Assembly: GCA_043811535.1 (NCBI GenBank)
Contig: JBDRNC010000008.1
Location: 46,867-110,866 of the forward strand
Length of the DNA stretch: 64,000 bases
Direction of reading: 5' to 3'
Source: Elusimicrobiota bacterium
GTDB taxonomy: Bacteria > Elusimicrobiota > Endomicrobiia > Endomicrobiales > JBDRNC01
Part shown: positions 1 to 64,000 of the stretch, in pieces
Position numbering within the stretch: the first letter of the stretch is position 1
How the letters are laid out: each line of letters begins with the position of its first letter
Notes under the pieces: generated by a model
The model's input: the letters and a program-made list of their open reading frames with translations, nothing else
Databases searched by the model: none
Told to the model about the DNA's origin: nothing
Translations under genes and position numbers: made by a program

Positions 1-378
1 ATATGGCATGTTCTTGAGCACCTGACGGATCCGATGGCGACGATAAGGGAAGTTTACAGGATTCTCAAGCCGGGTGGAATATTTCTGCTCGCGCTTCCCA
101 ACCTGAATAATTACTTTTTCAGGCTCATGTACCCCGTAGTCAGGCGAAAAAAATACCTGCTTTTCACGCCGGAAGACAGGGAGCAGCATTTCTTCTATTT
201 CAACGGGCGCGCGCTAAGAAATATGCTTGAACTCGGTAAATTCAATGTTTTAAAAATAGCGCCCGATCTCGGCCAGGTTTCCTCTGGAAAACGCATCCTG
301 GATTTTATGCCTTATCTGTTTTACGCGATATCCGGAATTATTTTTACTGACGCGATAAAAGCTGTCGCCAGAAAGTAA
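1..378 (+). CDS. Class I SAM-dependent methyltransferase (5' partial)
   Basis: Frame is open from base 1: IWHVLEHLTDP...RILKPGG post-II/III motifs. Confidence 0.8.
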   Translation: MWHVLEHLTDPMATIREVYRILKPGGIFLLALPNLNNYFFRLMYPVVRRKKYLLFTPEDREQHFFYFNGRALRNMLELGKFNVLKIAPDLGQVSSGKRILDFMPYLFYAISGIIFTDAIKAVARK

Positions 379-387
379 TCATCTATT

Positions 388-1479
388 ATGAAAATCCTTA
401 TTGACGGAAGAGAATTTGAAAAGGGGAAATTGACCGGGATAGGGCGGTTCCTGAAAAACGTCCTTGCCATGCTCGCGCCCGCGAGGCCGGGATGGGAGTT
501 TATCCTTGTTCTCAACCAGCACGGGGAGTTTCCCGACAAGTACCCGAACCTGAAAACCGCCGTTATTCAAGAGAGAAACACTTTATTCACCGATCAGTTC
601 ACTCTGTCACGGCTTATCAGGCGGGAACGCGCCGGCCTGTTCTACTCGCCCTATTACAAGTGCCCTGTTTTCGCGAATGTTCCAAAAATAATCACGATAC
701 ACGACCTGACGTATTTCATCCTGGAAAGTTCGCCGCATTTTAACAACAAACCTCTTCTCCTGTGGCACAGGATTATTGCACGCGGGGCGTCAAAGATAAT
801 CACTGTTTCCGAAAATTCGGCAAATGACATTAGCCGCCTGCTGAACGTCAGTCGCGACAAGATAAAGGTTTTATACAACACGGTCTCGGATTCTTTCGTT
901 CCGCGGCCCGGCGTAGAGATATCCAAAACACTCGCCAATCATTCAATCAGGAAGCCCTATATCGTTTATGTAGGTAATTCAAAGCCCCATAAGAACCTGA
1001 AACGGCTTATTGAAGCGTTCTCGCTCCTGCCTGAAAAAATGCGGAACGCGTATTCGCTTGTCCTTGCCGGCGTTGACCCGTCAATCCTTGATGAATATCC
1101 GGATAAGAGCGGGTTTGCCGCGATACCTTTCATCCCGGACGAAGACCTTCCGGCCCTTTACAGCGGGGCCGAACTCATGGTGTTCCCGTCGCTTTACGAA
1201 GGTTTCGGCATTCCTCCGGTTGAAGCGATGGCATGCGGGTGCCCCGTGGCGAGTTCCAACGTTTCCTGCATGCCTGAAATACTGGACGACGCGTGCGTTT
1301 ACTTTAACCCGCTTGATATAAATGATATGTCGGAAAAAATCCAATTGCTGTTGTCTGATAAGAACCTGCGGGAAGAATTGAGCCATAACGGCAGGGAACG
1401 CGCTGAAAGATACCGCTTGAAAGCGTCCGTTCCAAGAGTACTCGGAATATTTGACGCGTTCGGAGTAAAACATGAATAA
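388..1479 (+). CDS. Glycosyltransferase family 4 (MtfB-like)
   Basis: YVGNSKPHKN and FPSLYEGFGIPPVEAMACG motifs. Confidence 0.92.
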   Translation: MKILIDGREFEKGKLTGIGRFLKNVLAMLAPARPGWEFILVLNQHGEFPDKYPNLKTAVIQERNTLFTDQFTLSRLIRRERAGLFYSPYYKCPVFANVPKIITIHDLTYFILESSPHFNNKPLLLWHRIIARGASKIITVSENSANDISRLLNVSRDKIKVLYNTVSDSFVPRPGVEISKTLANHSIRKPYIVYVGNSKPHKNLKRLIEAFSLLPEKMRNAYSLVLAGVDPSILDEYPDKSGFAAIPFIPDEDLPALYSGAELMVFPSLYEGFGIPPVEAMACGCPVASSNVSCMPEILDDACVYFNPLDINDMSEKIQLLLSDKNLREELSHNGRERAERYRLKASVPRVLGIFDAFGVKHE

Positions 1480-6657: not shown

Positions 6658-6664
6658 ATACGAC

Positions 6665-6720
6665 GATTACACAGATTTCAAACGAAGATTACACGGATAG
6701 CAAACGAAGATTACACAGAT
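6665..6720 (+). repeat. Orphan GATTACAC[A/G]GAT array, 3 units, 22-nt period
   Basis: Units at 6665, 6687, 6709; same unit as the left arm of the GxxExxY element. Confidence 0.9.
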
Positions 6721-6738
6721 ACGTCATTCTGATGTTGC

Positions 6739-6814
6739 TGTCATCCCCGAAATCCGTAATCGGGGAACCACTTTCACGGAAACTTGGATTCCCCGGTTAA
6801 ACCGGGGAATGACA
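6739..6814. repeat. TGTCATCCCC...GGGAATGACA double-hairpin REP-like element
   Basis: Two GC hairpins in terminal inverted TGTCAT/ATGACA; relatives at 11068-11097 and 14874-14907. Confidence 0.7.
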
Positions 6815-6889
6815 AACTTAGGCTTGAATGTATGTTCTGTCGCAACGGTCTGATTTAGTCAGCAATAAGATGAAATATTTCGCGTTTTT

Positions 6890-7585: not shown

Positions 7586-7602
7586 TATATCCGTTCCCGA
7601 CT

Positions 7603-7628
7603 GTAGCCGGCACTTAAGTGCCGGCTAC
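7603..7628. repeat. GTAG-type perfect palindrome (GGCACTTAAGTGCC core)
   Basis: gtagccggcacttaagtgccggctac, 26 bp perfect. Confidence 0.85.
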
Positions 7629-7649
7629 CAACGAATATACAGGATTGGA

Positions 7650-8111: not shown

Positions 8112-8119
8112 GTATTGCT

Positions 8120-8182
8120 ATGATTTGGATTTTGTTTTTTTGAGCTTATTTAGTGTTTAGAACTTAGTATTTAGTGTTTGAG
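8120..8182 (+). repeat. TTTAGTR heptamer array (right arm only)
   Basis: Shares tttgagcttatttagt with the right arm at 34450-34466. Confidence 0.7.
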
Positions 8183-8991: not shown

Positions 8992-9146
8992 TTTTAACAT
9001 CCATCCTCCCCTTCGATAATAGGGGGAAGCACAGTGTGCTTCCCCACTGGGATGTTCGTAGATGGGGGTGCCGGAGGAACGAGGTGGGGATGGAAAGAAA
9101 ATAATCGTCACCCCCATCCCAACCTTCCCCCGTCAAGGGGGAAGAA
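8992..9146. repeat. Composite GC-rich palindromic element, copy 1
   Basis: 8992-9092 matches 15791-15891 with 1 mismatch; followed by a CCCCATCCCAACCTTCCCC hairpin. Confidence 0.9.
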
Positions 9147-9795: not shown

Positions 9796-9876
9796 CATTC
9801 CCGCATCGGTCCGCCGCGGCGGACGGGAATGGGAAATTTCAAAATCCCCCTGTATCCCCCTTTAGAAAAGGGGGAG
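9796..9876. repeat. Hairpin with nested CCGCCGCGGCGG, plus AAATCCCCCTGTATCCCCCTTT...AAAGGGGG element
   Basis: Second part also occurs at 17172-17208. Confidence 0.7.
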
Positions 9877-9901: not shown

Positions 9902-11053
9902 TTGAATTCAAACGGTTCATTGCGTAAAGCATATTACGTTCTCCTTTGCATCCTGCTTGTCATGCTTGTCCAGATGAAAGGCGGAAGGTGGGCCTGGACG
10001 TTCCAGGCGTGGGACCAGACATGGAACATCCGGTGGATATATGTGTTGTTCCTGTCTTTTATCTTTGCCCAGCTGCTTACGCCGGTTGCCATCAGGCTGG
10101 CGTGGTTCTTTAAAATACTTGATTATCCGGACGCAAGGAAATTGCACGGAAAACCGATGCCGAGGATAGGGGGGCTGGCGATATTTTTTGCCGTTATCTT
10201 CGCGACCGCTCGCAATTACCAGTTCTCGCCTGAACTGCTCGGCCTGGTGACCGGCGGTTCAATAATATACATACTGGGATTCATCGACGATATACACCCG
10301 CTTCCGGCGACGCCGCGGCTTATTATCCAGATGCTCGCCTGTTTTGCCGTCATTAAAGGCGGGATAGTAATAACCGCTATCCCGAGTTACTGGCCCTTTG
10401 CCGAATATTTAAGAATTATCGTGACCGTTGTCTGGCTGATAGGGATAGCGAATGCCATCAATTTCCTCGACGGGGTTGACGGCCTTATTTCCGGAATGGT
10501 CGCCATAAGCGCGTTACTTTTCTTTTTTATCGCGTGGCCCACCAGGCAGAGCTACCTTGCCTATCTTGTCATAGCCGTCGCGGGCGCCTGCATCGGATTC
10601 CTGCCGTATAACTGGAAACCGGCCAAAACTTTCATGGGCGACGCCGGCGCCACTTTCCTGGGTTTCATGGTGGCCGGCACGGCTATAATGGGCTCGTGGG
10701 CGCACAAAAACCCGATGGTCGCCATATCTACGCCCCTGCTTATTCTCGGCATACCCATCTTTGACATGATATACACGACCTTTTCAAGGATCAAAAACAG
10801 AAGAATCCATAATTTTAAACAATGGCTGGAATACACGGGCAGGGACCATTTCCATCACCGCTTGATGCATATCGGGCTTTCCGAAAAAAATACCGTGCTT
10901 TTTATCTGGATGCTGAACATCTGCCTCGGCATAGGAGCGGTAGTGATAAGGAACGCCGGGGCAATGAATTCAATATTCGTTCTGATACAATCCGCGATGA
11001 TATTGCTGATTATTACGGTGCTTATGATAGTCGGAAGGGAAACGACAAAATGA
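9902..11053 (+). CDS. WecA/TagO-like undecaprenyl-phosphate GlcNAc-1-phosphate transferase (MraY family)
   Basis: PRIGG, GFIDD, NFLDGVDG, FMGDAG, HFHH motifs. Confidence 0.9.
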   Translation: MNSNGSLRKAYYVLLCILLVMLVQMKGGRWAWTFQAWDQTWNIRWIYVLFLSFIFAQLLTPVAIRLAWFFKILDYPDARKLHGKPMPRIGGLAIFFAVIFATARNYQFSPELLGLVTGGSIIYILGFIDDIHPLPATPRLIIQMLACFAVIKGGIVITAIPSYWPFAEYLRIIVTVVWLIGIANAINFLDGVDGLISGMVAISALLFFFIAWPTRQSYLAYLVIAVAGACIGFLPYNWKPAKTFMGDAGATFLGFMVAGTAIMGSWAHKNPMVAISTPLLILGIPIFDMIYTTFSRIKNRRIHNFKQWLEYTGRDHFHHRLMHIGLSEKNTVLFIWMLNICLGIGAVVIRNAGAMNSIFVLIQSAMILLIITVLMIVGRETTK

Positions 11054-11199: not shown

Positions 11200-11952
11200 A
11201 TGAAGAAAACGGCAAAATTAATCGTGATGATGTTGTTCTTTGCGGGCGCCGCGGAAGCGCGTATCAACATGTTTGAGCCCTGGCACCCGGGGCAGGATTC
11301 AAAGATCCGCAGCGAATTCTCTTTCCAGTACATCGGATCCGTTCTTTTCGGGGATAAACTGCAGGAGATCCCGTTCCAGCTGTCTTACACGGCCGGAAAA
11401 AATATCGAGGTCGGGGGAAGATGGGGAGTGAAGAATTTTGACGGCCATTTCGGCATAAGCGACCTCCTGCTCGGCATGAAGTACGGTTTTCTGGAAGAAA
11501 CTATCAACAAGCCCAGTGTGATAGGCGAGATCGGGTTTTCACTGCCTACCGCCGACCAGAACAACGGGCTCGGGACCGGTTCTGTCGGCCTGCTCCTTAA
11601 CTGGGCCATAGAAAAAAGGATTGAAACTCTGACGGGCTACTTCGGGTTGGGCATGGCGATGTACTCCGAGAACAGCGACAAGGTTCAGTACGGGAATATT
11701 TTTTCATATCACGTAGGCGCAGGCTCACAGTACAATAAACTCTTGCGGATACACATGGAATTCAAGGGTTTCAACCACGGAGCCGCAAAAACCGCGGGCA
11801 TTCAGACTTTGGACAACTACCAGGAAATGTACCTCGCGCCCGGCGCGAATTACAACTGGACAAAACAGAACATGATACTTTCCGGCTCGCTCCTGTTCGG
11901 TCTCACGCCGGAATCGCACAAATTAGGATTTATTATAAGCAGCAACTTTTAG
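11200..11952 (+). CDS. Outer-membrane beta-barrel protein (putative transporter)
   Basis: Signal peptide, amphipathic strands, LPTAD..GLGTG, C-terminal Phe. Confidence 0.65.
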   Translation: MKKTAKLIVMMLFFAGAAEARINMFEPWHPGQDSKIRSEFSFQYIGSVLFGDKLQEIPFQLSYTAGKNIEVGGRWGVKNFDGHFGISDLLLGMKYGFLEETINKPSVIGEIGFSLPTADQNNGLGTGSVGLLLNWAIEKRIETLTGYFGLGMAMYSENSDKVQYGNIFSYHVGAGSQYNKLLRIHMEFKGFNHGAAKTAGIQTLDNYQEMYLAPGANYNWTKQNMILSGSLLFGLTPESHKLGFIISSNF

Positions 11953-11958
11953 TACAAC

Positions 11959-12058
11959 GATTACACCGATTTGAAACGAAGATTACACCGATTATCAACA
12001 ACGATTTCACAGATTATATAAAGACGATTACACCGATAAACAACGAGATTACACTGAT
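11959..12058 (+). repeat. Left arm of GxxExxY element: 5 x GATT[A/T]CACNGAT
   Basis: Units at 11959, 11981, 12003, 12026, 12047. Confidence 0.92.
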
Positions 12059-12073
12059 TAACGACTGGGGGAT

Positions 12074-12448
12074 ATGCAGATGAAGGAAACTGATCTTTTA
12101 ACTGCAAAGATAATTGGCTGTTGTTTTAAAGTTCACAGGGAGATTGGCCCGGGTTTCAATGAAAAAATATATCAAAATGCCCTGACAACTCTTTTCAATA
12201 AAGAGAACATTAATTACATAACGGAAAAGGAATACGAAGTAAAGTACTTAAATGCTAGGATAGGAATATTTCGCGCAGATATAGTAGTTGAAGAGAAGGT
12301 AATAGTAGAGATAAAGGCGGTAACAGGAGATATCACCAAGTTATTTGAAAAACAAGTTATTTCGTATTTAAAGTCGTCGGGGCATAAAATTGGGTTGTTG
12401 ATAAATTTTGGCAATGAAAGCTGTCAGATAAAAAGACTTGTTAGTTAA
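12074..12448 (+). CDS. GxxExxY protein (PD-(D/E)XK nuclease fold)
   Basis: GPGFNEKIY, RADIVVEEKVIVEIK, GLLINFG; visibly AT-richer than its flanks. Confidence 0.93.
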   Translation: MQMKETDLLTAKIIGCCFKVHREIGPGFNEKIYQNALTTLFNKENINYITEKEYEVKYLNARIGIFRADIVVEEKVIVEIKAVTGDITKLFEKQVISYLKSSGHKIGLLINFGNESCQIKRLVS

Positions 12449-12464
12449 TCCGTGTTTTGGTTGT

Positions 12465-12566
12465 ATCTGTGTAATCTGTCGTTAGTAATCTGCGCAATCG
12501 TCGTTCTTGTAATCTGTGTAATCGTAGTTTTTATCTGTGTAATCTTCGTTAGAAATCGGTGTAATC
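12465..12566 (-). repeat. Right arm of GxxExxY element: 5 x ATCNGYGYAATC (inverted)
   Basis: Units at 12465, 12488, 12512, 12533, 12555 are reverse complements of the left-arm unit. Confidence 0.92.
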
Positions 12567-12584
12567 TTTGTTCTAGGAGAGATA

Positions 12585-14761: not shown

Positions 14762-14773
14762 AAGGGTCCATAA

Positions 14774-14853: not shown

Positions 14854-14920
14854 TATAACGATATGCTAAAAAATGTCATTCCTGTCCGCCGCGGCGGAGG
14901 GATGACAAATGAGGAATCAT

Positions 14921-15941: not shown

Positions 15942-15965
15942 TAAAGGAAAAGGAAAGGATTTCAC

Positions 15966-29330: not shown

Positions 29331-29497
29331 TAGGTTGAGGAAGTTCCGTGACGCTCGAAAGGGCTATTCGGACACTGCCCCGCAACGGTAAATTAACGAC
29401 AGCAAGTAGCAATTAGCTATTAGCAATTAGAGTTCTTAACTACTCGCCAATTGCAAATCGCAAATTGCTGTCGTTAAGAGTCCGGTCGACAGCCTGT
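29331..29497 (+). promoter_or_regulatory. Cobalamin riboswitch with inserted hairpins
   Basis: GGAAG..CCGTG..TTCGG..ACTGCCCCGCAACGGTAA ... GAGTCCGG..GAC; upstream of cobO. Confidence 0.85.
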
Positions 29498-30256: not shown

Positions 30257-30865
30257 ATGGGTAAACCCCGTTCCAAATCTCGAAGCTTAGGTCTATCCGC
30301 AAAATATTCTACCCCAAAGTGTTCCAATGCAGAAATTTGGAAACGGGGTAAAATTATCTTCATCACTGGCGGCGTAAGGTCCGGAAAGAGCAAATTAGCC
30401 ACTGATCTGGCCAAGAAATCAGGCAAAAAGGTGGCATTTATAGCTACTTGCGCCCCCCTTGACCGTGAAATGGAACACAGGATAGGTTTGCACAAGAGTT
30501 CAAGGCCAAAGAACTGGAAAACCATCGAAGAACCCAAGTACCTGCGATCCGCGCTCAAAAAAATCCCATCCGGAACAGGGTCTGTAATTGTCGACTGCCT
30601 TACCTTATATGTATCAAACCTCATACTTTCAGGAAAAACTGAAGAAGAAATACTAAATAACATTGAAAATACAATCAAAATACTGAAAAAATCAAGATTT
30701 ACCTCAATTCTGGTCTCTAATGAGGTGGGCATGGGCATAGTTCCGGATAACGAATTGGCCCGTATTTTCAGGGATGTGTCCGGAAAAGTCAACCAGTTGG
30801 CGGCAGCCGCGAGCGATGAGGCGTATTTCATGGTTTCGGGACTGCCCGTTAAAATAAAGGAATAA
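30257..30865 (+). CDS. cobU: Adenosylcobinamide kinase/guanylyltransferase, with 29-aa N-terminal insertion
   Basis: TGGVRSGKS, DCLT, SNEVGMGIVP. Confidence 0.92.
   Translation: MGKPRSKSRSLGLSAKYSTPKCSNAEIWKRGKIIFITGGVRSGKSKLATDLAKKSGKKVAFIATCAPLDREMEHRIGLHKSSRPKNWKTIEEPKYLRSALKKIPSGTGSVIVDCLTLYVSNLILSGKTEEEILNNIENTIKILKKSRFTSILVSNEVGMGIVPDNELARIFRDVSGKVNQLAAAASDEAYFMVSGLPVKIKE
30265..30349. mobile_element. CCCGTT...AACGGG inverted-repeat element inserted in frame in cobU
   Basis: accccgttccaaat / atttggaaacggggt; GGGTAAA repeated 87 nt apart. Confidence 0.7.
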
Positions 30866-33587: not shown

Positions 33588-33687
33588 TCCCGTTAGACCG
33601 CGTAAGTATCAGGATAAATTTTCACAAAGAGCTCATATTATAGCCGTAAGCAAAGCTTAATCTAAAACAAGAGAGGTCTAAACGGGA
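33588..33687. mobile_element. CCCGTT...AACGGG element abutting the next ATG
   Basis: tcccgttagacc / ggtctaaacggga(tg). Confidence 0.6.
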
Positions 33688-34355
33688 TGAAAGTTATCAT
33701 ATCCTGGAGCGGAGGGAAGGACAGCTGCCTGGCGCTTTATAAGGCGATAAAAGCCGGGCACCAGCCCGTTGTGCTCCTGAATTACATATCGGAAGAACAT
33801 AAAAGGTGCTGTTTCCACGGCGTCCCGATGGAACTCATAAAGGCGCAGGCCGATTCCCTGGGCATACCGCTTGAACAGAAAGCCGCGCCGGCGACCATGG
33901 AAGGCTACGAAAAAATGTTCAAGGAAGCGGTTCGCGAATTGATGGCTAAATATGACGCCGAGGGCATGGTTTTCGGGGATATTTACCTGCTTGAACACCA
34001 GAGCTGGGTCGAAAGGGTATGCGGTGAAATAGGCGTTAAAATGATAGAACCGCTGTGGGAACAGCCGGTTGAAAAACTCATAGATGAATTCCTCGGATTA
34101 GGATTTAAAACGACAATTGTAAGCGCCAAGGCCGACATCCACGGCGAAAACTTCGTCGGGCGGGATATGAGCCCTGAAATAGTCCAAATGCTGAAGGCGG
34201 AAAAGGCCTGCGTTTGCGGGGAGAACGGCGAATACCACACCTTTGTTTACGACGGCCCGCTGTTCAAAAATAAGATCAGCATAACAAAGGCGGAAAAAAC
34301 ATTCAGGGACGGGTTCTGGAAACACTGGTTCTTAGATATACAAGAGTTTGCGTAA
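33687..34355 (+). CDS. DUF71/COG2102 ATP pyrophosphatase (Dph6-like, PP-loop)
   Basis: SWSGGKDS, FGDI, CGENGEYHTFVYDGP. Confidence 0.9.
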   Translation: MKVIISWSGGKDSCLALYKAIKAGHQPVVLLNYISEEHKRCCFHGVPMELIKAQADSLGIPLEQKAAPATMEGYEKMFKEAVRELMAKYDAEGMVFGDIYLLEHQSWVERVCGEIGVKMIEPLWEQPVEKLIDEFLGLGFKTTIVSAKADIHGENFVGRDMSPEIVQMLKAEKACVCGENGEYHTFVYDGPLFKNKISITKAEKTFRDGFWKHWFLDIQEFA

Positions 34356-34493
34356 AACACTAAACTCTAAATACTAAACACTAAATAAATCAAAAATTGT
34401 AAATCCAAATTTAAATATAATTGCAGTGTTTGATTTTTAGGATTTGTATTTTGAGCTTATTTAGTATTTAGTGTTTTGTATTTAGTATTTGAC
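34356..34493. repeat. Two-armed heptamer hairpin element (YACTAAA ... TTTAGTR)
   Basis: cactaaa ctctaaa tactaaa cactaaa ... tttagta tttagtg ttttgta tttagta. Confidence 0.85.
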
Positions 34494-38491: not shown

Positions 38492-38494
38492 AAC

Positions 38495-38572
38495 GATTGC
38501 ACAGATTATAAACGAAGATTACACAGATTATTAATGAAGATTACACCGATTACTAACGGAGATTCCACAGAT
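38495..38572 (+). repeat. Orphan GATTNCACNGAT array, 4 units, 22-nt period
   Basis: Units at 38495, 38517, 38539, 38561, starting right after the btuB stop. Confidence 0.9.
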
Positions 38573-41384: not shown

Positions 41385-41458
41385 TATTACCGATTACAGA
41401 TTACAAATTACAAATTAACGGCCTTTAATATGTAGTCTGTAATTTGTAATGTGTAATT
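41385..41458. repeat. Two-armed heptamer hairpin (ATTACAA ... TGTAATT)
   Basis: gattacagattacaaattacaaatt ... tgtagtctgtaatttgtaatgtgtaat. Confidence 0.8.
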
Positions 41459-42156
41459 TATCTGTTTAATTTTAACTTCCAAACCCTGAAAAGATATTGT
41501 ATCAGCATCGATGGTTTCAGTTTTGATACTCCGGCGCCGCGCGCCATGAATTCAATCGGGACTTCGGTTATCCTGAACCCGTACTTCCTTATGTAATGCA
41601 GTGATTCTGTTACGACAAACGGATCCCGGGCCTTCAGATGCGGAAGAATTTTCACCATGACTTCTCTTTTAAAAAGCCTGAATCCCGAAGCAGGGTCCTT
41701 CAATTTTACGCCGAGAACGAGCGCCAGGTATTTGCGCGCGAACTCGCTTATAATATTGCGCAGGAAAGTTCTTTGTTCATCCTTGCCGCCTTCCACGTAC
41801 CTTGAACCTATTACAACGTCATATTGTTCAGCGGCTTCCACAAAAGCCGGAATATATTTCGGGGAATGCGAAAGGTCGCCGTCCATCTCAACTATCATAT
41901 CGGCGCCCAGTTCCAGCGCGACCTTGAAACCGTCTATGCCCGCCCACCCGCGCCCGCGTTTGTCTTTTCTTACGAGCAGGTTTACCCGCTTATCTTTTTT
42001 GGAAATCTCCTCGACGATCTTATATGTGCCATCCGGCGAGAAATCGTCCACGACAAGAACGCCTATGTCCAGCTTCAGCGTTAGTATCCTGTCTATCACG
42101 ATCTGGATGTTTCCGGCTTCATTATAAGTGGGGATTACTGCGATGATCTTAGGCAT
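41458..42156 (-). CDS. Polyprenol monophosphosugar synthase (GT2, DPM1-like)
   Basis: IPTYNE, VVDDFSPDGT, MDGDLSH, GSRY. Confidence 0.9.
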   Translation of the reverse strand: MPKIIAVIPTYNEAGNIQIVIDRILTLKLDIGVLVVDDFSPDGTYKIVEEISKKDKRVNLLVRKDKRGRGWAGIDGFKVALELGADMIVEMDGDLSHSPKYIPAFVEAAEQYDVVIGSRYVEGGKDEQRTFLRNIISEFARKYLALVLGVKLKDPASGFRLFKREVMVKILPHLKARDPFVVTESLHYIRKYGFRITEVPIEFMARGAGVSKLKPSMLIQYLFRVWKLKLNR

Positions 42157-43517: not shown

Positions 43518-44309
43518 ATGAACACTAAATTTAAAGCATTACAATTAAAGCTGCTTCAAATGAAACGCGTGCTCATCGCGTTTTCCGGAGGCGTGGATTC
43601 TACGTTCCTTCTGCATGCCGCCGTCAAGACGCTTGGCAGGAAGAATGTCCTGGCGGTGACGGCTGTAAGCGAAACCTACCCGAAATCCGAGCTGAAACTC
43701 GCGAAGAAGATGCTTAAAAGAACCGGCGCGAGGGGGATATTTATAAGAACCTCCGAGTTGAAAAACAGTAGATTCGCGTCAAATCCGCGTGAAAGATGTT
43801 TTTACTGCAAGGACGAGCTTTTCAAAAAACTCTCCGCTCTTGCGAAAAAAAACAAAATGATTCTGCTCGACGCGACGAATTATTCCGACAGGACCGACTT
43901 CAGGCCCGGGAGGAAAGCCGCGATGAAGTGGGGGGTCAAATCACCTATTGCTGAAGCAAAACTGACAAAAGACGAAATTAGAAAGTTGAGCAGGAGATTC
44001 AAGCTCCCCACGTGGGACCTGCCGGCGCAGGCGTGCCTGGCTTCCAGAATACCTTACGGCGTAAAAATCAGCACGGCGCTGCTTGCTAAGATTGAAAAAG
44101 GGGAAGCATTCATAAAAAAACTCGGCTTTACCAATGTCCGCATAAGAAGCCACGGCAATATCGCAAGGATTGAAATAGACAAGAAACAATTTAATAAACT
44201 ATTGGATGGAAACATCCGCAGTAAAATATATGCCTGCCTCAATAAACTCGGCTGGAGCTATGTCTCCGCCGATATCCTCGGTTACCGCACGGGTAGTTTG
44301 AACAATTAA
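43518..44309 (+). CDS. larE: ATP-dependent sacrificial sulfur transferase, LarE family
   Basis: AFSGGVDS, RCFYCK, DFRPG, ACLASRIPYG, GYRTGS. Confidence 0.88.
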   Translation: MNTKFKALQLKLLQMKRVLIAFSGGVDSTFLLHAAVKTLGRKNVLAVTAVSETYPKSELKLAKKMLKRTGARGIFIRTSELKNSRFASNPRERCFYCKDELFKKLSALAKKNKMILLDATNYSDRTDFRPGRKAAMKWGVKSPIAEAKLTKDEIRKLSRRFKLPTWDLPAQACLASRIPYGVKISTALLAKIEKGEAFIKKLGFTNVRIRSHGNIARIEIDKKQFNKLLDGNIRSKIYACLNKLGWSYVSADILGYRTGSLNN

Positions 44310-44410
44310 CAGTTAACAATTATCAATTACCAATGAACGACCAACAACGGGAATAGGACATCAAGAATGATTATTGATAATTGCTAATTGGTAATTGTTC
44401 ACTGCTATTG
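44300..44410. repeat. Two-armed heptamer hairpin (AACAATT ... AATTGNT)
   Basis: aacaattaacagttaacaattatcaattaccaatg ... attgataattgctaattggtaattgttc; supplies the larE stop codon. Confidence 0.8.
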
Positions 44411-50461: not shown

Positions 50462-50585
50462 ACCCCGTTAGAGCTAGGCCGCCTTTCGGCGGCCGTATTC
50501 CTTTATATTTTTCTTATTGTGTTATTTTCCGCGACAGCATAATACTCATGAGCAAAAATAGAAATATGTGTATCTCTAACGGGGT
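50462..50585. mobile_element. ACCCCGTTAGAG...CTCTAACGGGGT inverted-repeat element
   Basis: 12-bp perfect terminal IR; right end overlaps GTG at 50584. Confidence 0.75.
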
Positions 50586-50790
50586 GAAAACTAAAAGGGA
50601 AAAAGGTCAGGCCCTCCTTCGCTCGCCGCTGAAGCATTGGGGAGCTACGGAAGGGCAGGTAATGGCGGAATATGTGATTGCGGCAGCCATTCTCGTCATC
50701 GCCATAGCAGGAGTCCTGATAGTATTCAGGGAAGGCCTCGCCGTAGTATTCAATAAAGTAGCGGGCCACCGTTGCGGGATGTACCCATGA
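50584..50790 (+). CDS. Flp-type pilin with palindrome insert in the leader
   Basis: GQ-VMAEY then a hydrophobic helix; start uncertain (GTG 50584 or ATG 50548). Confidence 0.75.
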   Translation: MKTKREKGQALLRSPLKHWGATEGQVMAEYVIAAAILVIAIAGVLIVFREGLAVVFNKVAGHRCGMYP

Positions 50791-51446
50791 ATATATTAAC
50801 GAAAGTATCTCGGGACTCGTATCTAGTATCTCGAACAGCTGAAACACGCAAGAACCTTCATCAAGGCTTCGAAGGACAAGCCCGCCAAAGGCACTACGGC
50901 GGGCAGGCGATGGTTGAAACTCTGTTCGCGGTGGTTTTTCTGACGACGTTTTTCTTCGCCGCAATGCAGTTTATCATGGTCTCAATCGCGTGGTTAAGGG
51001 CCAACGAAGCCGCACAGGCGGGGCTAAGATGCGCGATAGTTTCCGAAGGAAGCACCGTGGAAGGCGCCGGCAGCGGCAATCCAAACAACCGCGCTCAAAC
51101 AGCGGTTTCATATATACTGGGGTTCGGCCTGCCTGCTAAAGCCGTACTTTGGGATAAAATCCCGGCCGAATCGGCCCGCCAGAGGCACAACGGCGGGCAG
51201 GCAGGGCGCGACCACTCTTCGGGCCCGAACATGAACGGCGCGAATATACGGATGTTCTCTCTGCACGTTTATTATTTTCAGAAACTGATGTTTTCGTCAT
51301 TTTTCAGCGGAATGTCTGCTTTCGGGATGCTGAATGTCTCGGACAAATACGGCCCAAGCGGCGCGGCACACTGCCGGATGATAAAGCCGCCTGACTGGAG
51401 GTATTATGAAAAAGCCTATCCGGAAGCGTATTGCTTCAATGAATAA
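50787..51446 (+). CDS. TadE-like pseudopilin
   Basis: GQ-AMVE + TM + EAAQAGLR; ATGA overlap start. Confidence 0.75.
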   Translation: MNILTKVSRDSYLVSRTAETRKNLHQGFEGQARQRHYGGQAMVETLFAVVFLTTFFFAAMQFIMVSIAWLRANEAAQAGLRCAIVSEGSTVEGAGSGNPNNRAQTAVSYILGFGLPAKAVLWDKIPAESARQRHNGGQAGRDHSSGPNMNGANIRMFSLHVYYFQKLMFSSFFSGMSAFGMLNVSDKYGPSGAAHCRMIKPPDWRYYEKAYPEAYCFNE

Positions 51447-52551
51447 GCCGATAAACTTCTATCTTCCGTCTTCCTTCTGCCGTAATCCGCGCGGCCAGGT
51501 ATTACCATACGCTCTGGTTATGCTCCTTGTCCTGATTATGTGCTGGGCGATGATGCTGAATATCGCGAAACTAACCGCGGACCGCATGATTACGCAAAAC
51601 GCGGCCGACAACGCGGCTGTTTCCGCCGCGGTTTACAGGGCCAGGGCCTTGAATACGCTCGGGCTCATGAATAACGCGATCGGCGCTCTGTTGTACGGCG
51701 GCAATGACGCGGTCACATCTTTTTGCTGGACATATCATAAATACTGCGTAAGCGTCGGCCTGACAGGATTGCCGGCAGGCGCGGCAATACCCCTTTTTCC
51801 TATGGGGGGATTGAACCCCGGAGACCTTCCCGGGGAATATGCTGAAGACAACCAGAAAAAGGTCGCGGGATATTTTGATACGTACGGGAGTAACGACCAT
51901 CTACAGGTCCGGTTAATTAAAACAGCCGTTGAACAACTGTCCAAGACGCAGCAATTAATAGCAAAAACCATTTATCCCGTTAAAGTACGCCTGCTCGCTA
52001 ACGATATCGGCAAGAGACAGGAAAAAAACCGCGCCGGAGAATATTCAGGCGCCGATCTCACATATATCGCAAGAGGAACATCGCTGGGCCTCAAAACAAA
52101 CACAAACGGCCCCGAGTACCATAGATCCAAGAAACTTGGCTGGCCCGAATCTTTTCTGATAAAAGGTGCGATAAACACGCTCATAGCGCTCACCGGTACC
52201 CCTGTGGAAATCAAGGAAATATACCAGGCTGAAAGATGGAGCAGCGGGAACTCTTCATGGCTGTACGCCGATAAAGAAGAATTTGACAAGAATCACAAAA
52301 TAACCGTTATTTGCGAAAGGCAGGAGAAAGGCTATCCTCTGCTCGCCGGCTGGTTCGGGATAAAGTGGCCGTCAATAAAGACCATAGCGGCCGCAGGGAC
52401 CTACAATACCGCCGGGCCGATGTTCCCTGTGGAAACGAATGAAAAACCGTCCGACGCTATCTCTCCCGTGATCAGGGAATACCAAAAAGCCGAAGATCAC
52501 GGATGGGACGCGCACCTGGCGCCGGTTAAACAAATGGGGATACTGCATTGA
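51439..52551 (+). CDS. TadG-like Tad domain protein
   Basis: RGQVL + TM + QNAADNAAVSAA. Confidence 0.8.
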   Translation: MNKPINFYLPSSFCRNPRGQVLPYALVMLLVLIMCWAMMLNIAKLTADRMITQNAADNAAVSAAVYRARALNTLGLMNNAIGALLYGGNDAVTSFCWTYHKYCVSVGLTGLPAGAAIPLFPMGGLNPGDLPGEYAEDNQKKVAGYFDTYGSNDHLQVRLIKTAVEQLSKTQQLIAKTIYPVKVRLLANDIGKRQEKNRAGEYSGADLTYIARGTSLGLKTNTNGPEYHRSKKLGWPESFLIKGAINTLIALTGTPVEIKEIYQAERWSSGNSSWLYADKEEFDKNHKITVICERQEKGYPLLAGWFGIKWPSIKTIAAAGTYNTAGPMFPVETNEKPSDAISPVIREYQKAEDHGWDAHLAPVKQMGILH

Positions 52552-53162
52552 CGACAATTACAGATTACAAATTACAAATTACATACAAAAAAAGAAACGG
52601 CGGGCAGGCCCGCCAAAGGCACTACGGCGGGCAGGCGCTTGTGGAAATTGTATTAGTCATTCCGCTTTTTATTCTTATCATATCTTTTACTTTGTGGTTC
52701 GCGCGGGTCTTGATAACGAAACAACAGCTGGTGACCGCCGCCCGATACGGAACCGACATGATCCTTTACACAACGCTCAACGAAAAACAGATAAAAAAAG
52801 AAATTCGCAATTACCTTTCGGATACCAATATTGAAGGAAGGAAACTTGATCCCGCCGGGCTGCCTGACGAAAATATCGCGGTTAAAATCGAAGGCTTCGT
52901 TCTCCCTGATTTTTCAAGCCCGTATGACCTGCTGGATCCTGGAAAATTGGGCAGACTTCTCGACGCGGGCAACCTGCTGGCCTTCCCTGAAAGGCACACT
53001 TCATGGGTTGAAATCCATTATGAATTCAGAACGCCGCGCGTCGTCTCGAATTTCAGCAGATATTTCTCCGGAGGTTTTCTGCCTGAGTCAATCACTATCT
53101 CGGGAAGGTCCGAAGTGCTCGCGGGAACCGGCTGCGGGAATGGGATACATGGACGACAGTAA
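52548..53162 (+). CDS. TadE-like pseudopilin
   Basis: GQ-ALVE + TM + AARYG; TTG start overlapping the upstream stop. Confidence 0.8.
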   Translation: MTTITDYKLQITYKKRNGGQARQRHYGGQALVEIVLVIPLFILIISFTLWFARVLITKQQLVTAARYGTDMILYTTLNEKQIKKEIRNYLSDTNIEGRKLDPAGLPDENIAVKIEGFVLPDFSSPYDLLDPGKLGRLLDAGNLLAFPERHTSWVEIHYEFRTPRVVSNFSRYFSGGFLPESITISGRSEVLAGTGCGNGIHGRQ

Positions 53163-53244
53163 TGAGTAATGGGTATTGAGTATTGGGTTTTTAGTATTTA
53201 GTATTTAGTGTTTAGAGTTTGTCTTAAATGGGGGGTGATTCACA

Positions 53245-53418
53245 ATGCTTATTAACTTCAGAAGGAACAGCAGGGGGCAGGGGATGGTGGAGTATATCCT
53301 GATAGTCGCGCTGATCGCGGTCATCGTGCTTGTCGGGATCAAACTATTCGGCGGCAAGATCAACACGCTGTTTCAGGACTCAGCCGAGAAGATTGAATCC
53401 GAGGCAAGGCCGCAATAA
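53245..53418 (+). CDS. flp: Flp family type IVb pilin (57 aa, absent from the ORF track)
   Basis: MLINFRRNSRGQGMVEYILIVALIAVIVLVGIKLFGGKINTLFQDSAEKIESEARPQ; SD GGGGGTG. Confidence 0.9.
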   Translation: MLINFRRNSRGQGMVEYILIVALIAVIVLVGIKLFGGKINTLFQDSAEKIESEARPQ

Positions 53419-53560
53419 CGCAGATTGTCACAGATAACTAGCACAGATAAGCGCAGATAAGACGTATCTGCGGCAATCTGCGTTTAAAAATCTGTTTAAT
53501 CTGCGCATGGGGCTTATCTGCGTTAATGTTTGTTGTCATAAAATCTGCGGTTATCTGCGT
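53418..53560. repeat. Gene-less two-armed CRCAGAT ... ATCTGCG element
   Basis: 4 left units and 7 inverted units; ends at the SD of cpaB. Confidence 0.85.
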
Positions 53561-53574
53561 ATGGGGGATAATAA

Positions 53575-54444: not shown

Positions 54445-54553
54445 TTTATGATAAATATGTTTGCGAGATCCGCCGTGGCGGACAAGAAAACAATCATCAT
54501 CCCCATCCCAACCTTCCCCTATCAAAGGGGAAGGTGAAGGAATAAGAATAATC

Positions 54554-57504: not shown

Positions 57505-57508
57505 GGAT

Positions 57509-57828
57509 ACGCAGATTAACGCAGATTCTTAAGACCAGATTACGCAGACAAAACCAAGACGCAGACGACTTCATATATTAAGTCAATGGAATCCCGCTTT
57601 AGCGGGATGAACACAGATAGAAAACTCAGATTAGCGCAGAATAAAACGCAGATTATCACAGAATTAAACTCAGATTATCGCAGATAATATGTATCTGTGG
57701 CAATCTGCGGGTATCTGCACATGAGGCTTATCTGCGTTAATACTTTTTGTTAAAGAATCTGCGGGCATCTGCGTATGAGGTTTATCTGCGTTAATACTTT
57801 TTGTTAAAGAATCTGCGGGCATCTGCGT
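57509..57828. repeat. Gene-less two-armed CGCAGAT ... ATCTGCG element with 54-bp tandem duplication
   Basis: 57721-57774 equals 57775-57828 with 1 mismatch; right arm homologous to 53505-53560. Confidence 0.88.
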
Positions 57829-57841
57829 ATAGGAGGGAGAT

Positions 57842-58825: not shown

Positions 58826-58844
58826 GATAGTGGCAAAAGTTACA

Positions 58845-59002
58845 CCGATAAAGGCAAACCCGGAGTAATCCGGGGACGCAAAGCCGAGGAACCTAGTAAC
58901 GACAGTATGAAATAGGAAGACAGAAGAAGGAAGAAAAGGCTGTTAACTTCCATCTTCAAACTTCAATCTTCCGTCTGTCGTTAAGGTTGGCTGGGGTGCC
59001 GG
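58845..59002 (+). promoter_or_regulatory. Cyclic di-GMP-I (GEMM-I) riboswitch with 87-nt insert in P3
   Basis: GGCAAACCCGGAGTAATCCGGGGACGCAAAGCC...AACCT//AGGTTGGC...TGCC. Confidence 0.85.
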
Positions 59003-59011
59003 AACAAAAAT

Positions 59012-61515: not shown

Positions 61516-61524
61516 GCGGCAACT

Positions 61525-62028: not shown

Positions 62029-63354
62029 ATGAAAACAAAATTATTAATCGCAACGCTAACTGTCATTTGCGCTCTATCCATCACAGCGTGGGCCGCGATC
62101 GGCATTAATCTCACCTCAAACGGATGGAACGTGACCCCTGCCGGCGGCAAGGGCGCGGGAACATGGACCAGCCCTACTTTTTCTGCGCAAAATATCGGAA
62201 CTGAATCCGGCAAACTGCTCATACGCGCCTCAAATACGCAGAATTGGAGCCTGTCGGCAGCTCCCGGAATGAACATCTTCGCCATGCAGTTTGGAGACGG
62301 AGGCACATGGAAAGCGTTGAGTACAGCTGAATCAGTTCTTGTGCAGTCGCTCAACGCGGGACTGCAGTACAATTTCATGCTGCGATATCAATCGCCTTCC
62401 GATTTGACTGATAAAACTTTGTCCGTGACCCAGATATCGACCGTCACTATTTCGATCATTTCCGCCGCATTGCAGCAGCCGGTCACTTCCTATGTCTTCC
62501 TGAAAAAATGGGGCAGCCGCGGATCGGAAAATGGCCAACTCCTTGATGCTGTAAAACTTGCCCTGGATTCGGCCGGTAACGTATATGTGGCGGATCATCT
62601 TAATAATCGCGTCGTAAAATTCACGTCAAACGGGGATTATATCATGAGTTGGGGAACAGCCGGCTCCGGCGACGGTCAATTCTCGCAAGCTTCAGGAATC
62701 GGCATAGACAGCAAGGATTACATATATGTGGGAGACATGCAAAACAACCGCGTGCAGGTATTCACCTCAAGCGGTCAATTTGTGAGAAAGTGGGGAACTG
62801 CCGGAACCGGCAACGGTCAATTTGACAAGCCCTACGGAGTTGACATTGACAAGGACGATAATGTCTATGTCACGGAATACTATGGATGCCGTATTCAGAA
62901 ATTTGATGCGGAAGGCGCGTATCTGATGAAGTTCGGAACCGAAGGAACCGGAGATGGGCAGTTACACCATCCAGCTACTGTCGCCATTGATGATTTGGGT
63001 TACATTTATGTTGCAGACTGCGGAAACAGCCGGGTGCTAAAGTTTGATTCAAACGGCGTTTTTGTTTTGAAATGGGGGACATTTGGCCTCGGCAACGGCC
63101 AATTTGACGTGCCGCAGGACGTAATAGTCGACAGATCCGGCAATATACTTGTAGTTGATTCCAGGAATTATACCGGACAGAATAGGGTACAGATTTTCAC
63201 GCCTAACGGCGTCTACATCTCCCAGTTCGGAAACGGACTAGGCACCGGCGACGGGCAGTTTCTTTCCTTATACGGCATGGTCATGGATCCATCCGGAAAG
63301 GTATATACTCTTGACGGTCCCACAGGCCGCATACAGGTATTCACGCCGCAATAA
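62029..63354 (+). CDS. Exported NHL-repeat beta-propeller protein
   Basis: Six G.G.GQF..P.G...D..G.IYV.D..N.R.QKF-type repeats. Confidence 0.9.
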   Translation: MKTKLLIATLTVICALSITAWAAIGINLTSNGWNVTPAGGKGAGTWTSPTFSAQNIGTESGKLLIRASNTQNWSLSAAPGMNIFAMQFGDGGTWKALSTAESVLVQSLNAGLQYNFMLRYQSPSDLTDKTLSVTQISTVTISIISAALQQPVTSYVFLKKWGSRGSENGQLLDAVKLALDSAGNVYVADHLNNRVVKFTSNGDYIMSWGTAGSGDGQFSQASGIGIDSKDYIYVGDMQNNRVQVFTSSGQFVRKWGTAGTGNGQFDKPYGVDIDKDDNVYVTEYYGCRIQKFDAEGAYLMKFGTEGTGDGQLHHPATVAIDDLGYIYVADCGNSRVLKFDSNGVFVLKWGTFGLGNGQFDVPQDVIVDRSGNILVVDSRNYTGQNRVQIFTPNGVYISQFGNGLGTGDGQFLSLYGMVMDPSGKVYTLDGPTGRIQVFTPQ

Positions 63355-63368
63355 GAACGAGAGGATTT

Positions 63369-64000
63369 ATGAAATCCCTGAAGGTATTGTTTATTCTGCT
63401 AACCGCCTGTTCGCCTGTGTGGGCCGCTATCGGCATTAAGCTCACCTCAAATGAATGGAACGTGGCCCAGGCTGACGGCTCGGGCGCGGGAACATGGACC
63501 AGCCCTGCATTCACCGTTCAGAATATCGGCACTGAACCCAGCAAACTGCTCATACGCGCCTCAAATACGCAGAATTGGAGCCTGGCGGCAGCTCCCGGAA
63601 TGAACATCTTCGCCATGCAGTTCGGCGACGGGAACACATGGAACGCGCTGAGCACGGCGGAATCAGTTCTTGTCTCATCTCTCAGCGCGAGCTCGCAGTA
63701 CAATTTCCTGCTGCGCTATCAGTCGCCCTCGGATTTGACCGATAAAACCCTGTCCTTGACGCAGACATCAACCGTCACTGTTTCAATTGTTTCCACCGCG
63801 CTGCAGCCGCCGGTTACTTCCTATGTTTTCCTGAGTAAATACGGCGCTCTCGGGAGCGGTAACGGGCAATTCAATTGGCCCTATAATATCGCGTTTGATG
63901 CTTCCGGAAACATCTACGTCACTGAGACCAATACCGGCAGTGAGACGGTCTGGAACTGCAGGGTTCAGAAATTCGACAGCAATTTCAATTTTATCACCAA
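63369..64000 (+). CDS. Paralogous NHL-repeat protein (3' partial)
   Basis: SD GAGG + ATG 63369, frame open to the window end; N-domain highly similar to the 62029 protein. Confidence 0.85.
   Translation, partial: MKSLKVLFILLTACSPVWAAIGIKLTSNEWNVAQADGSGAGTWTSPAFTVQNIGTEPSKLLIRASNTQNWSLAAAPGMNIFAMQFGDGNTWNALSTAESVLVSSLSASSQYNFLLRYQSPSDLTDKTLSLTQTSTVTVSIVSTALQPPVTSYVFLSKYGALGSGNGQFNWPYNIAFDASGNIYVTETNTGSETVWNCRVQKFDSNFNFIT

Follow-up and report, generated by a model that had tools for sequence, protein, structure and literature searches.

What are the short palindromic and periodic sequences that fill so many gaps between genes in this Elusimicrobiota bacterium, and what put them there? The stretch of DNA in which they were noticed (64,000 nucleotides, hereafter the window) holds at least eight separate repeat families, built of short hairpins and seven-base repeats, which crowd its intergenic gaps. 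A sequence-only reading had taken them for non-autonomous elements, mobilised by small single-gene nucleases and confined to tolerated sites. Since six main families bracket a rare small gene of their own elsewhere in the genome, we consider it probable that what fills the gaps are gene-less forms of tiny elements, likely selfish and belonging to at least eight families, with the bracketed genes likely copying the arms around them.

Repeat families in the window and the genome

With gene boundaries taken from an in-house simple gene caller, an element is found at 33 of the 58 gene junctions of the window and in 648 of the 1634 gaps of the whole genome (~40%). All the named families proved real, occurring well above chance as judged by block shuffles and at sites of the kind claimed. 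Period-7 arrays number 631 genome-wide, 534 of them mostly intergenic, against 5, 0 and 5 in block shuffles, and there are 174 period-8 arrays (the shuffle control covered period 7 only). The remaining genome-wide counts, each followed by its range in block shuffles, are 256 for GATTACAC/CGCAGAT words (15-25), 68 for CCCGTTAGA arms (16-17), 31 for ACTTAAGT palindromes (0-2; 29 of the 31 are intergenic), 60 for the CCCCATCCC type (0), 74 for CCGCCGCGGCGG (0-3) and 58 for a loose GGGCAGG pattern (7-10). For the GTCAT type, a loose GTCATCCCC pattern stood only slightly above chance (123 vs 77-87 shuffled), and its place was taken by a tight pattern with clear enrichment (36 vs 1-9).

Elements also lie within one another, as the earlier reading had it: CCGCCGCGGCGG sits in a GTCAT hairpin (14875-14906) and in a heptamer arm (36533), and ten times, twice within the window, the loop of the CCCTCCCC hairpin encloses a 55-nt unit. 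The mini-hairpins are of two kinds, GGGCAGG (family D) and CCGCCGCGGCGG (family H).

9811..9822, unstranded: family H mini-hairpin CCGCCGCGGCGG; other copies at 14886 (inside the GTCAT hairpin), 36533 (inside the heptamer arm) and 54470, with a variant at 43437
50612..50659, + strand: family D-like 48-nt in-frame insert at a prepilin Gly-Gln site
50881..50907, + strand: family D 27-nt in-frame insert at a prepilin Gly-Gln site; the same at 52609-52635
51175..51201, + strand: 27-nt family D insert lying mid-gene in a TadE-like gene

The last of these is an exact 9-aa insertion relative to the orthologue in G002. For families D and H no partner gene was proven in this genome. A fixed target for family D was considered and dropped, the copies being too few.

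Partner genes

A small gene enclosed by the arms is found for 6 of the 8 named families in this genome, the partners being GxxExxY, a four-helix bundle, a RAYT, two GIY-YIG types and DUF559. The link between arm and gene is repeated in phylum or order relatives for GxxExxY, the four-helix bundle, DUF559 and the GTCAT-type GIY-YIG. The only arm-bracketed gene found in the window is, as first described, that of the GxxExxY cassette (family A).

11950..12575, + strand: gene-carrying cassette, inverted GATTACAC arms around the GxxExxY gene (12074-12448)
6660..6721, + strand: family A single arm, a GATTACAC array with a 22-nt period
38492..38572, + strand: family A single arm across the stop codon of a TonB receptor gene
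53419..53560, unstranded: two-armed family A CGCAGAT element lacking a gene, with a larger counterpart at 57505-57830

The GxxExxY product (PD-(D/E)XK-like) matches TIGR04256 with 127 bits and shares D69 with 24, and E79 and K81 each with 23, of 24 homologues; a search by sequence found no relative in the PDB, and a single-sequence AlphaFold model was unusable (pLDDT 35). Both GxxExxY genes of the genome lie within GATTACAC/CGCAGAT arms, and inverted flanks accompany 21 of 24 GxxExxY loci, a count that includes 1-2 of our own loci, has no random-gene control and uses 24 of 27 loci, with fragments, weak hits and long fusions left out. The window cassette lies between a porin-like gene and phoH, a junction that in relatives measures 14-80 nt and lacks arms in all six cases where both genes adjoin; at the two gene-less sites, junctions are 76-334 nt shorter in 9 of 10 comparisons. 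TAG/TAGG duplications for this family were dropped as ambiguous with the arm ends. Also dropped were an ORF6N gene (49129-49671) as a second cassette, around which no arms were seen, and a general GGGGG SD signature, which is true of this genome only.

Family B, the largest, comprises about 800 arrays (805, period 7 and period 8 together) against 6 four-helix-bundle genes.

34352..34492, unstranded: full gene-less TAAAnnC element, with its cognate cassette at G000 C27:28082-28441
41386..41459, unstranded: ATTnCAn hairpin, with 54 near-full-length copies
8112..8180, unstranded: half element of TAAAnnC words, its arm end entering the SD region of the downstream gene
44295..44410, unstranded: AACAATT hairpin
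28350, 29243, 31913, 39188, 42156-42217, 44463, 46031 and 53158-53220: other heptamer arms

All six genes (PF05635), a further one of which is at G000 C12:54791-55162, adjoin 7- or 8-nt arms, two of them with a single clear arm only, and a period-7/8 array stands on at least one side at 25 of 29 PF05635 loci (1-2 own loci included and no random-gene control; 29 of 30 loci used, with fragments, weak hits and long fusions left out). Our own cassettes lie between protein genes, past a tRNA-like sequence or at a contig end, and none lies within the 23S rRNA gene. The partner is an Avd-like S23p protein (PF05635, TIGR02436) for which we know of no catalytic activity; both of the four-helix-bundle proteins scanned matched TIGR02436. 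Its closest structure is 2GSC (E 4e-23, 5 chains), described in the available text of PMC4990558 as a homopentamer. The proposal that small nucleases serve these elements thus fails for the largest family, whose partner has no known nuclease activity, and for the GTAG family, whose partner is a RAYT transposase.

The arrays of family B follow a grammar of words. Spans of 4-5 words account for 502 of the 631 period-7 arrays, four words being commonest, and identical neighbouring words are depleted in four of seven heptamer families (observed/expected with position kept, 1/17.1, 23/42.8, 2/9.5 and 3/13.0) and non-significant in the other three. This avoidance could alternatively come from loss of perfect repeats. 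Such word-run arms would fit binding sites for a pentameric protein; the match of five words to a pentamer is so far a numerical coincidence, the commonest span being four. Identity among gene-less heptamer copies is 71-87%, and just 96 of the 805 arrays have a 28-mer in common with another, which gives no hint that the copies spread in a recent burst.

Family C consists of CCCCGTTAGA elements and has a GIY-YIG cassette, within CCCCGTTAGA arms, as its partner (G000 C7:15856-16134).

50463..50584, unstranded: family C element (CCCCGTTAGA...TCTAACGGGG) over the start of a Tad pilin-like gene
33588..33687, + strand: family C element whose last base is the A of the downstream ATG

The junction of the second element is 74-130 nt shorter in all three relatives compared. 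These elements have terminal inverted repeats of 11-14 bp and 4-bp target duplications, exact 4-nt direct flanks being found at 10 of 29 own elements (3.1±1.5 when permuted) and at 18 of 66 GIY-YIG-carrying loci from GTDB (2.9±1.5); the other 19 own elements, the gene-carrying one among them, lack an exact duplication. Inverted ends and duplicated targets are features that they share with IS elements and MITEs. Of 80 listed GTDB loci with CCCCGTTAGA arms, from a scan that was conditioned on GIY-YIG-sized spacing (arms 245-275 nt apart), 66, spread over many phyla, enclose a GIY-YIG nuclease and no DDE or HUH transposase.

The other partnered families in the window are the GTAG repeats (family E), the GTCAT hairpins (family F) and the CCCTCCCC elements (family G).

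7602..7629, unstranded: family E GTAG REP (ACTTAAGT palindrome); other copies at 14773-14800, 14826-14854 and 30201-30238, the last with a perfect 16-bp stem
6738..6815, unstranded: family F pair (GTCATCCCCG...GGGAATGAC), Ssn/SRM-like
9000..9146, unstranded: family G composite, with BoxC/triplex-like arms and a 55-nt GGGGAAGCAC unit nested in it; another copy at 15797-15945; other arms at 9843, 17174, 29590-29662 and 54500-54534

The RAYT gene (G000 C30:6542-7075; NF047646, 122.6 bits against a cut-off of 80) has ACTTAAGT REPs on both sides and one inside. Two GIY-YIG genes (G000 C30:25172 and C4:109303) lie within GTCAT arms, and in a tree of 26 of 30 fetched loci plus 4 own genes, with UvrC-length ones left out, the GTCAT-flanked genes form one clade of 7 (support 100/99). 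The published degenerate SRM pattern has 20 matches (6-10 shuffled), 0 of them in the window; 9 are intergenic, the flank of our own C30 GIY-YIG gene being among these sites. The DUF559 gene (G000 C7:17183-17563) lies within CCCTCCCC arms, and inverted flanks occur at 8 of 11 DUF559 loci (1-2 own loci included, no random-gene control; 11 of 28 loci used, leaving out fragments, weak hits and long fusions). A triplex layout gave 14 loose matches for family G, all intergenic and with 0 in shuffles; the strict E. coli TM consensus gave 0. Outside the window, a further GGGGACGG family has a Y1 gene (C36:8220-8876) between TIRs, with GGGGWSAS matched at 7 of 8 positions.

Evidence for mobility

The elements are not fixed at orthologous sites. 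In 109 junction comparisons with order-level relatives, 86 were empty, 18 held an element of a different family and 5 one of the same class (cases where an ORF >110 aa intervened were left out, and L020 alone was counted since it and L021 are identical at the compared junctions). A reciprocal filled site is present in G006, and the ATTnCAn hairpin at 41386..41459 stands where relatives have a -4 gene overlap. GTDB holds no genome of the same family, and a metagenome scan using the protein encoded at 9962-11053 as query found 3 loci (42-76% identity); the polarity of insertion rests on order-level relatives because these loci are distant. Because sites are mostly empty in relatives and six of eight families bracket their own gene, the elements are neither fixed nor without a consistent enclosed gene, the two outcomes that would speak against mobility. 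The pairing of arms with genes, empty orthologous sites, the multiplication of whole units and, in the CCCCGTTAGA family, 4-bp target duplications all favour the reading that the repeats are gene-less members of gene-carrying families; their mobilisation in trans we infer.

It is unlikely, in our judgement, that only the cassettes move and that each gene-less copy is a separate remnant of cargo deletion, with no copying in trans. Cargo genes overlap the arms, so that deletion would leave paired arms, and broken cargo genes exist; near-identical gene-less copies are few, and CCCCGTTAGA copies vary in the length and sequence of their interiors, which look mutually unrelated. Against this, 35 near-full-length copies of the gene-less TAAAnnC element, with length and loop sequence in common, stand at unrelated sites across the genome, one nested composite recurs ten times, and, with about 800 arrays but 6 four-helix-bundle genes, hundreds of deletions would have had to occur in parallel and leave similar joints.

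Sites occupied within genes and RNAs

The reading that elements enter riboswitch loops was confirmed; inserts in Tad leader peptides and in the CobU N-terminus, and arms that supply stop or start codons, were observed directly.

29393..29477, + strand: family B heptamer hairpin (85 nt) in a cobalamin riboswitch (weak match, 29315-29511)
58897..58983, + strand: family B GAAGnnG hairpin, an 87-nt insert in the P2 loop of a c-di-GMP-I riboswitch (58844-59004)
30266..30348, + strand: family C variant (CCCCGTT...AACGGGG), in frame in the N-terminus of CobU
51455..51485, + strand: heptamer array translated within a Tad leader peptide; another at 52556-52583

The CobU insert, 83 nt plus a TAAA duplication, makes up 87 nt, and the protein begins MGK-[29 aa]-IIFITGG where relatives have an MGKLIFITGG-type start. 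In relatives the cobalamin riboswitch loop is short (G011, G013 and G014) or holds other heptamer words (G004 and G012). Genome-wide, 105 of the 805 periodic arrays span a stop codon and 74 lie inside strongly called genes. The bias to tolerated sites is strong, but it is no rule, and 'confined' is too strong a word because 37 of the 805 lie mid-gene. Most simply, the bias to gaps, RNA loops, leaders and protein ends would reflect the survivors of selection.

The same placement might instead mean that the hairpins are domesticated RNA devices, kept for tuning mRNA processing or translation in operons much as RNase III-cut intervening sequences might, a view that we hold to be quite improbable. 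Seven of eight elements tested form much better folds than their shuffled versions, arms extend over stop codons, SD regions and riboswitch loops, and 391 of 426 array-bearing gaps separate co-oriented genes, though 1514 of 1604 gaps are of that class. However, 23 of 46 convergent gaps are filled, a larger share than the 391 of 1514 among co-oriented gaps, and sites in relatives are mostly empty or hold other families. Nor was there arm covariation, a GU-over-AC bias on the transcribed strand or an orientation bias in 20 TAAAnnC elements (those of the 35 matched by pattern), where arm-to-arm pairing was 417 against 429±6 shuffled and GU 27 against AC 25.

That the arrays arose where they stand, through local replication slippage and hairpin-forming mutation, with the gene links as by-products, is very hard to credit and largely refuted by copy units, word spans, target duplications and neighbour avoidance: one riboswitch loop does carry different heptamer words in relatives on a short common stem base, but slippage predicts identical neighbours and variable lengths, the opposite of what is seen, and leaves family-specific cargo genes and target duplications unexplained.

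A model for the spread of the elements

If the repeats are gene-less copies of small selfish elements, a partner gene would likely copy its own arms to new sites, its protein recognising them on single-stranded DNA and host repair completing the insertion. For RAYT and Ssn-type partners these two steps draw on published experiments in which their repeats were cut in vitro; for GxxExxY, DUF559 and CCCCGTTAGA-type GIY-YIG partners they are suggested by analogy only. The four-helix-bundle protein may bind and deliver the element and leave cutting to another enzyme, because its homologue of solved structure is a ring of five and the arms look like runs of 4-5 binding words.

More tentatively, the four-helix-bundle (S23p/Avd-like) ring could be the recognition module of very widespread, undescribed, non-catalytic mobile elements, in which one subunit would read one 7-8-base word, 4-5 words would form an address, and hundreds of gene-less hairpins would have spread with a borrowed enzyme; the GxxExxY, DUF559 and 280-bp GIY-YIG elements alongside it would be among the smallest autonomous transposons. 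If true, such reading by a ring would account for the heptamer repeats of bacteria and for the ORF that rRNA intervening sequences carry.

Relation to known repeats

Cyanobacterial STRR repeats are short intergenic heptamer runs like those of family B, whose arms do not, however, consist of identical units in variable number as STRR-like tandem repeats would. Families D and H are palindromes of 12-48 nt that enter genes in frame or other hairpins, in which they resemble Rickettsia palindromic elements and cyanobacterial SDR repeats; they are shorter than the Rickettsia elements and of other sequence.

Within the portions of the cited papers available to us, parts of the present set match published systems, namely REP/RAYT, Ssn, BoxC and the Coxiella IVS. 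Family E resembles GTAG REP/RAYT in its GTAG-footed palindrome and a cognate RAYT flanked by the same repeats (PMC3733652, PMC6006769), and the wider pattern is also alike, with one gene per family, many intergenic copies, repeat-supplied stops and some in-gene copies (PMC3733652, PMC6006769). The likeness to REP/RAYT and TIRYT covers only family E and perhaps the GGGGACGG family; the other families use unrelated proteins. Family F recalls Ssn and its NTS/SRM hairpins, with arms on both sides of a single-domain GIY-YIG gene of ~95 aa, although its window copies miss the strict SRM pattern (PMC11893778). The CCCCGTTAGA family differs from Ssn in its GIY-YIG clade, terminal inverted repeats and 4-bp duplication, and is absent from the main text of PMC11893778.

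Family B is like the Coxiella 23S rRNA IVS, where inverted ends, with a near-perfect 28-bp stem, enclose the ORF for an S23p family protein and heptamer repeats lie upstream of that ORF (PMC4990558). In contrast, its cassettes occupy ordinary junctions, its gene-less copies are ~100-fold more numerous, and its arms are imperfect word arrays without covariation instead of a near-perfect stem. It also resembles the TAACTGA repeats, for which a regulatory role was proposed, in its short intergenic heptamer runs and rare in-frame copies at protein edges, but has many vocabularies, inverted partner arms and four-helix-bundle cargo; the main text of PMC4679880 contains neither 'four helix' nor '23S'. 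Family G shares the purine/pyrimidine three-block layout and variable loci of the BoxC/PIT/TM triplex repeats, but encloses a DUF559 gene, where the available text of PMC4666352 names no partner gene. Our literature search found no description of GxxExxY, four-helix-bundle or DUF559 cassettes as mobile families, although supplements may list such motifs, and none of CCCCGTTAGA cassettes, at whose motif the search was scarcely aimed. New here are the heptamer word grammar (mostly 4-5 words, identical neighbours avoided, no covariation) and the CCCCGTTAGA family's 4-bp target duplications and GIY-YIG cargo across many phyla.

Implications

The design known from REP/RAYT and Ssn, a small gene with its own repeat, is used by at least five unrelated protein families in one genome. 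Heptamer runs and triplex-like repeats, two repeat types that had long lacked an explanation, now have candidate partner proteins. Since the repeats contribute to signal peptides, pilin leaders and riboswitch loops, they confuse the annotation of genes and RNAs. The finding also suggests how a protein family without an assigned function could be tested directly, by asking if a four-helix-bundle pentamer binds 7-base words in a run.

Repeat families and their genomic setting

The gene content of the window is ordinary (glycosylation, cobalamin, Tad-pilus and transport genes), and inspection of each gap, combined with repeat scans, found in it every repeat family named in a sequence-only reading of this DNA. 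Gene boundaries came from ORF lists and a simple purpose-made caller (2188 genes); elements occupy 33 of the 58 junctions between neighbouring genes in the window and 648 of 1634 gaps across the host genome (G000; 2.65 Mb, 40 contigs, of which C8 holds the window at 46867-110866). Genome-wide, arrays of 7-nt words number 631 versus 0-5 in shuffles, and the remaining families lie ~4- to 60-fold or more above shuffles; a loose GTCAT pattern showed no comparable genome-wide excess. The sequence-only list lacked the 174 period-8 arrays, which have arms of 8-nt words. Other host families missing from it are GTCATTGCGAG hairpins, a TAAATTGCC family, GGGGACGG TIRs that accompany a Y1 gene, and the palindromes particular to each of two other Y1 genes (example sites on host contigs: C14:1590, C15:1082, C16:38600, C13:7000, C36:8200).

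Arms and partner genes

Partner genes were sought by searches of the host genome and their flanks were then read. The proposal that small single-gene nucleases mobilise these repeats called for consistent enclosed gene families. Six of the named repeat families have one in the host genome, with one-to-one arm-gene links.

Repeat arms and their partner genes in the host genome
GATTACAC/CGCAGAT arms (family A): GxxExxY, 2 genes
7/8-nt word arms (family B): four-helix bundle PF05635, 6 genes, the word differing in each
ACTTAAGT GTAG REPs (family E): RAYT
GTCAT hairpins (family F): GIY-YIG, two genes
CCCCGTTAGA ends (family C): a third GIY-YIG gene
CCCTCCCC triplex-like arms (family G): DUF559

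In a sample from the phylum, a periodic array lies on at least one side of 25 of 29 four-helix-bundle loci, and inverted flanks surround 21/24 GxxExxY and 8/11 DUF559 loci (frequencies with no background rate from random genes); arm words differ between genomes, and the GTCAT-flanked GIY-YIG genes form a single clade. Across GTDB, CCCCGTTAGA arms 245-275 nt apart, a spacing picked to suit a GIY-YIG-sized gene, occur at ≥117 loci and enclose GIY-YIG in 66 of the 80 listed, from many phyla. Host searches and flank inspection established no partner for the CCGCCGCGGCGG mini-hairpin (family H) or the in-frame insert palindromes (family D). Short GIY-YIG genes also adjoin whole and partial tRNA-like copies or sit between them, in some cases with CCGCC hairpins (host C4:50429-50707 and C27:42202-42450; retrieved loci L145, L152, L153, L159); with three loci having such hairpins nearby, these genes are only a lead to a partner of families H and D.

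A GGGGG run stands just 5' of the start codon in 12/17 cargo genes of the host versus 28/1533 host genes (window 12066-12070, 49040-49062, 53229-53234, 53562-53566), also precedes several ORF6N-like genes and host genes directly 3' of gene-less arms, and is mostly missing from cargo genes of relatives (present in 3/24 and 2/29). A solitary, armless ORF6N gene (window 49129-49671), inserted 5' of the Tad secretin, contains an internal TCACAAATTGTGA palindrome and has four more copies elsewhere in the genome (44-64% identity, one split).

Turnover and probable copying

The closest genomes compared come from different families within the order (~70% nucleotide identity), so the direction of change is read by parsimony. 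At 23 element-bearing window junctions with an informative relative, 109 orthologous comparisons gave 86 element-free sites, 18 with another family and 5 with the same broad class; at least one relative is empty at 20/23 junctions, so that the elements turn over rather than being fixed, as anticipated from the sequence. The GxxExxY cassette is absent from 6/6 relatives in which porin and phoH are still adjacent, and homologues with 64-66% identity and the same arms occupy other sites in two relatives (G001, G007); a third, G006, has a GIY-YIG cassette where the host genes overlap (-4).

Gene-less copies could be separate deletions of cassettes, but near-full-length copies number 35 for the 146-nt TAAAnnC element, where they have a loop in common, and 54 for the ATTnCAn element, which favours copying as units. 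Target duplication appears in one family: exact 4-nt direct flanks border 10 of 29 CCCCGTTAGA elements (3.1 expected), and the copy of this type in CobU is an 87-nt in-frame insert that includes a TAAA duplication. Heptamer copies share just 71-87% identity and only 96/805 arrays share a 28-mer with another, which counts against recent heptamer activity.

The nature of heptamer arms

Most arrays (502/631) span 4-5 words. With position kept, identical neighbouring words fall below expectation (1 vs 17.1, 23 vs 42.8, 2 vs 9.5, 3 vs 13.0), a depletion not significant by this test in three other heptamer families. These patterns fit arrays of protein-binding words, although the same neighbour pattern could arise if perfect repeats are unstable and selected against. 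Across 20 TAAAnnC elements, left and right arms match no better within than between copies (417 vs 429±6), and the elements show neither a GU bias nor a clear orientation bias; together with neighbour depletion, these results speak against both slippage and selection for an RNA stem, even though the hairpins still fold. The structure nearest the four-helix-bundle partner, 2GSC, is described as a homopentamer (PMC4990558), and the partner matches the Avd model with a score below the cut-off; if the arms are protein-binding words, each subunit may bind one.

Tolerated sites

A strong positional bias holds, with 731/805 periodic arrays outside strongly called genes and the remainder N-terminal (26), C-terminal (11) or mid-gene (37, against a 66% share of mid-gene DNA in the genome). 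The term 'confined to tolerated sites' is nevertheless too strong, because of these mid-gene arrays. Family D inserts keep frame; three lie at Tad prepilin Gly-Gln sites, which they rebuild, and one forms an exact 9-aa mid-protein insertion relative to G002. By eye, 22/26 N-terminal arrays resemble LLPSSIF-type hydrophobic cores of signal peptides. The placement in riboswitch loops, leader peptides and protein termini was borne out (c-di-GMP-I, cobO, Tad prepilins, terminal arrays).

In many proteins with AFKD/AFED-type mature starts, the apparent signal-peptide core is a heptamer array (host C4:77268, C18:19877, C38:16298 and others); N-terminal arrays use the pyrimidine strand, C-terminal ones mostly the purine strand. 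Two short pilin-like ORFs fall below the 80-aa cut-off (window 53245-53418 and 50566-50790), the latter with two elements in its leader.

The P2 loop of the c-di-GMP-I switch is enlarged by 87 bases; among nine such aptamers from relatives, seven are short-looped and two, both from G011, hold other heptamer words. The cobO switch in relatives has a short loop in 3, different heptamer words in 2 and a longer loop in 1. Riboswitch inserts of host and relatives share an AAC(G)RC-type stem word at their start:
window 29393-29477, insert
window 58897-58983, insert
L165, L166, L172, L030, L031, inserts in retrieved loci

Across the genome, array edges are ~5-fold richer in this word (10.1 vs 1.9 per kb), which may serve heptamer families as a common signal for an end or a target.

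Nesting, as reported from the window, is common among CCGCCGCGGCGG and CCCTCCCC copies: 43/74 CCGCCGCGGCGG copies lie ≤45 nt from another repeat motif, the stem continues into the flank in 70/74, and ten CCCTCCCC hairpins hold a 55-nt unit in the loop. At window 57702-57830, within the right arm of a family A element that lacks a gene, a 54-nt unit is duplicated in tandem (2.4 copies, 94% match), a local expansion inside the arm. The left end of an IS200-type element occurs in six identical copies, each immediately 3' of TTAGT and apparently within heptamer arms (C16:120, C18:119, C22:43926, C23:66086, C24:25434, C35:12146; five of six at contig ends); these arms seem to be landing pads for a recently active IS.

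Proposed mechanism and relation to known systems

Family E is a REP/RAYT system, in which RAYT is described as cutting and rejoining REPs (PMC3733652, PMC6006769). Family F probably works like Ssn/SRM, where Ssn is described as cutting its own hairpin as ssDNA (PMC11893778). As these sources describe them, BoxC/TM repeats (PMC4666352) resemble family G, and TAACTGA repeats (PMC4679880) and the Coxiella IVS (PMC4990558) resemble family B, which unlike the latter is not in rRNA. The literature covered, main texts with few subscription journals, yielded no account of GxxExxY, four-helix-bundle, DUF559 or CCCCGTTAGA cassettes as mobile families. GxxExxY retains a PD-(D/E)XK-type D-E-K triad and, judged from its sequence, is plausibly a nuclease acting for its own family. 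Each partner protein would act in trans to copy its own arms, host repair would complete insertion, and selection would leave surviving copies in gaps, loops and leaders. The elements are real, and their reading as a guild of small selfish elements, some known and others undescribed, is well supported.
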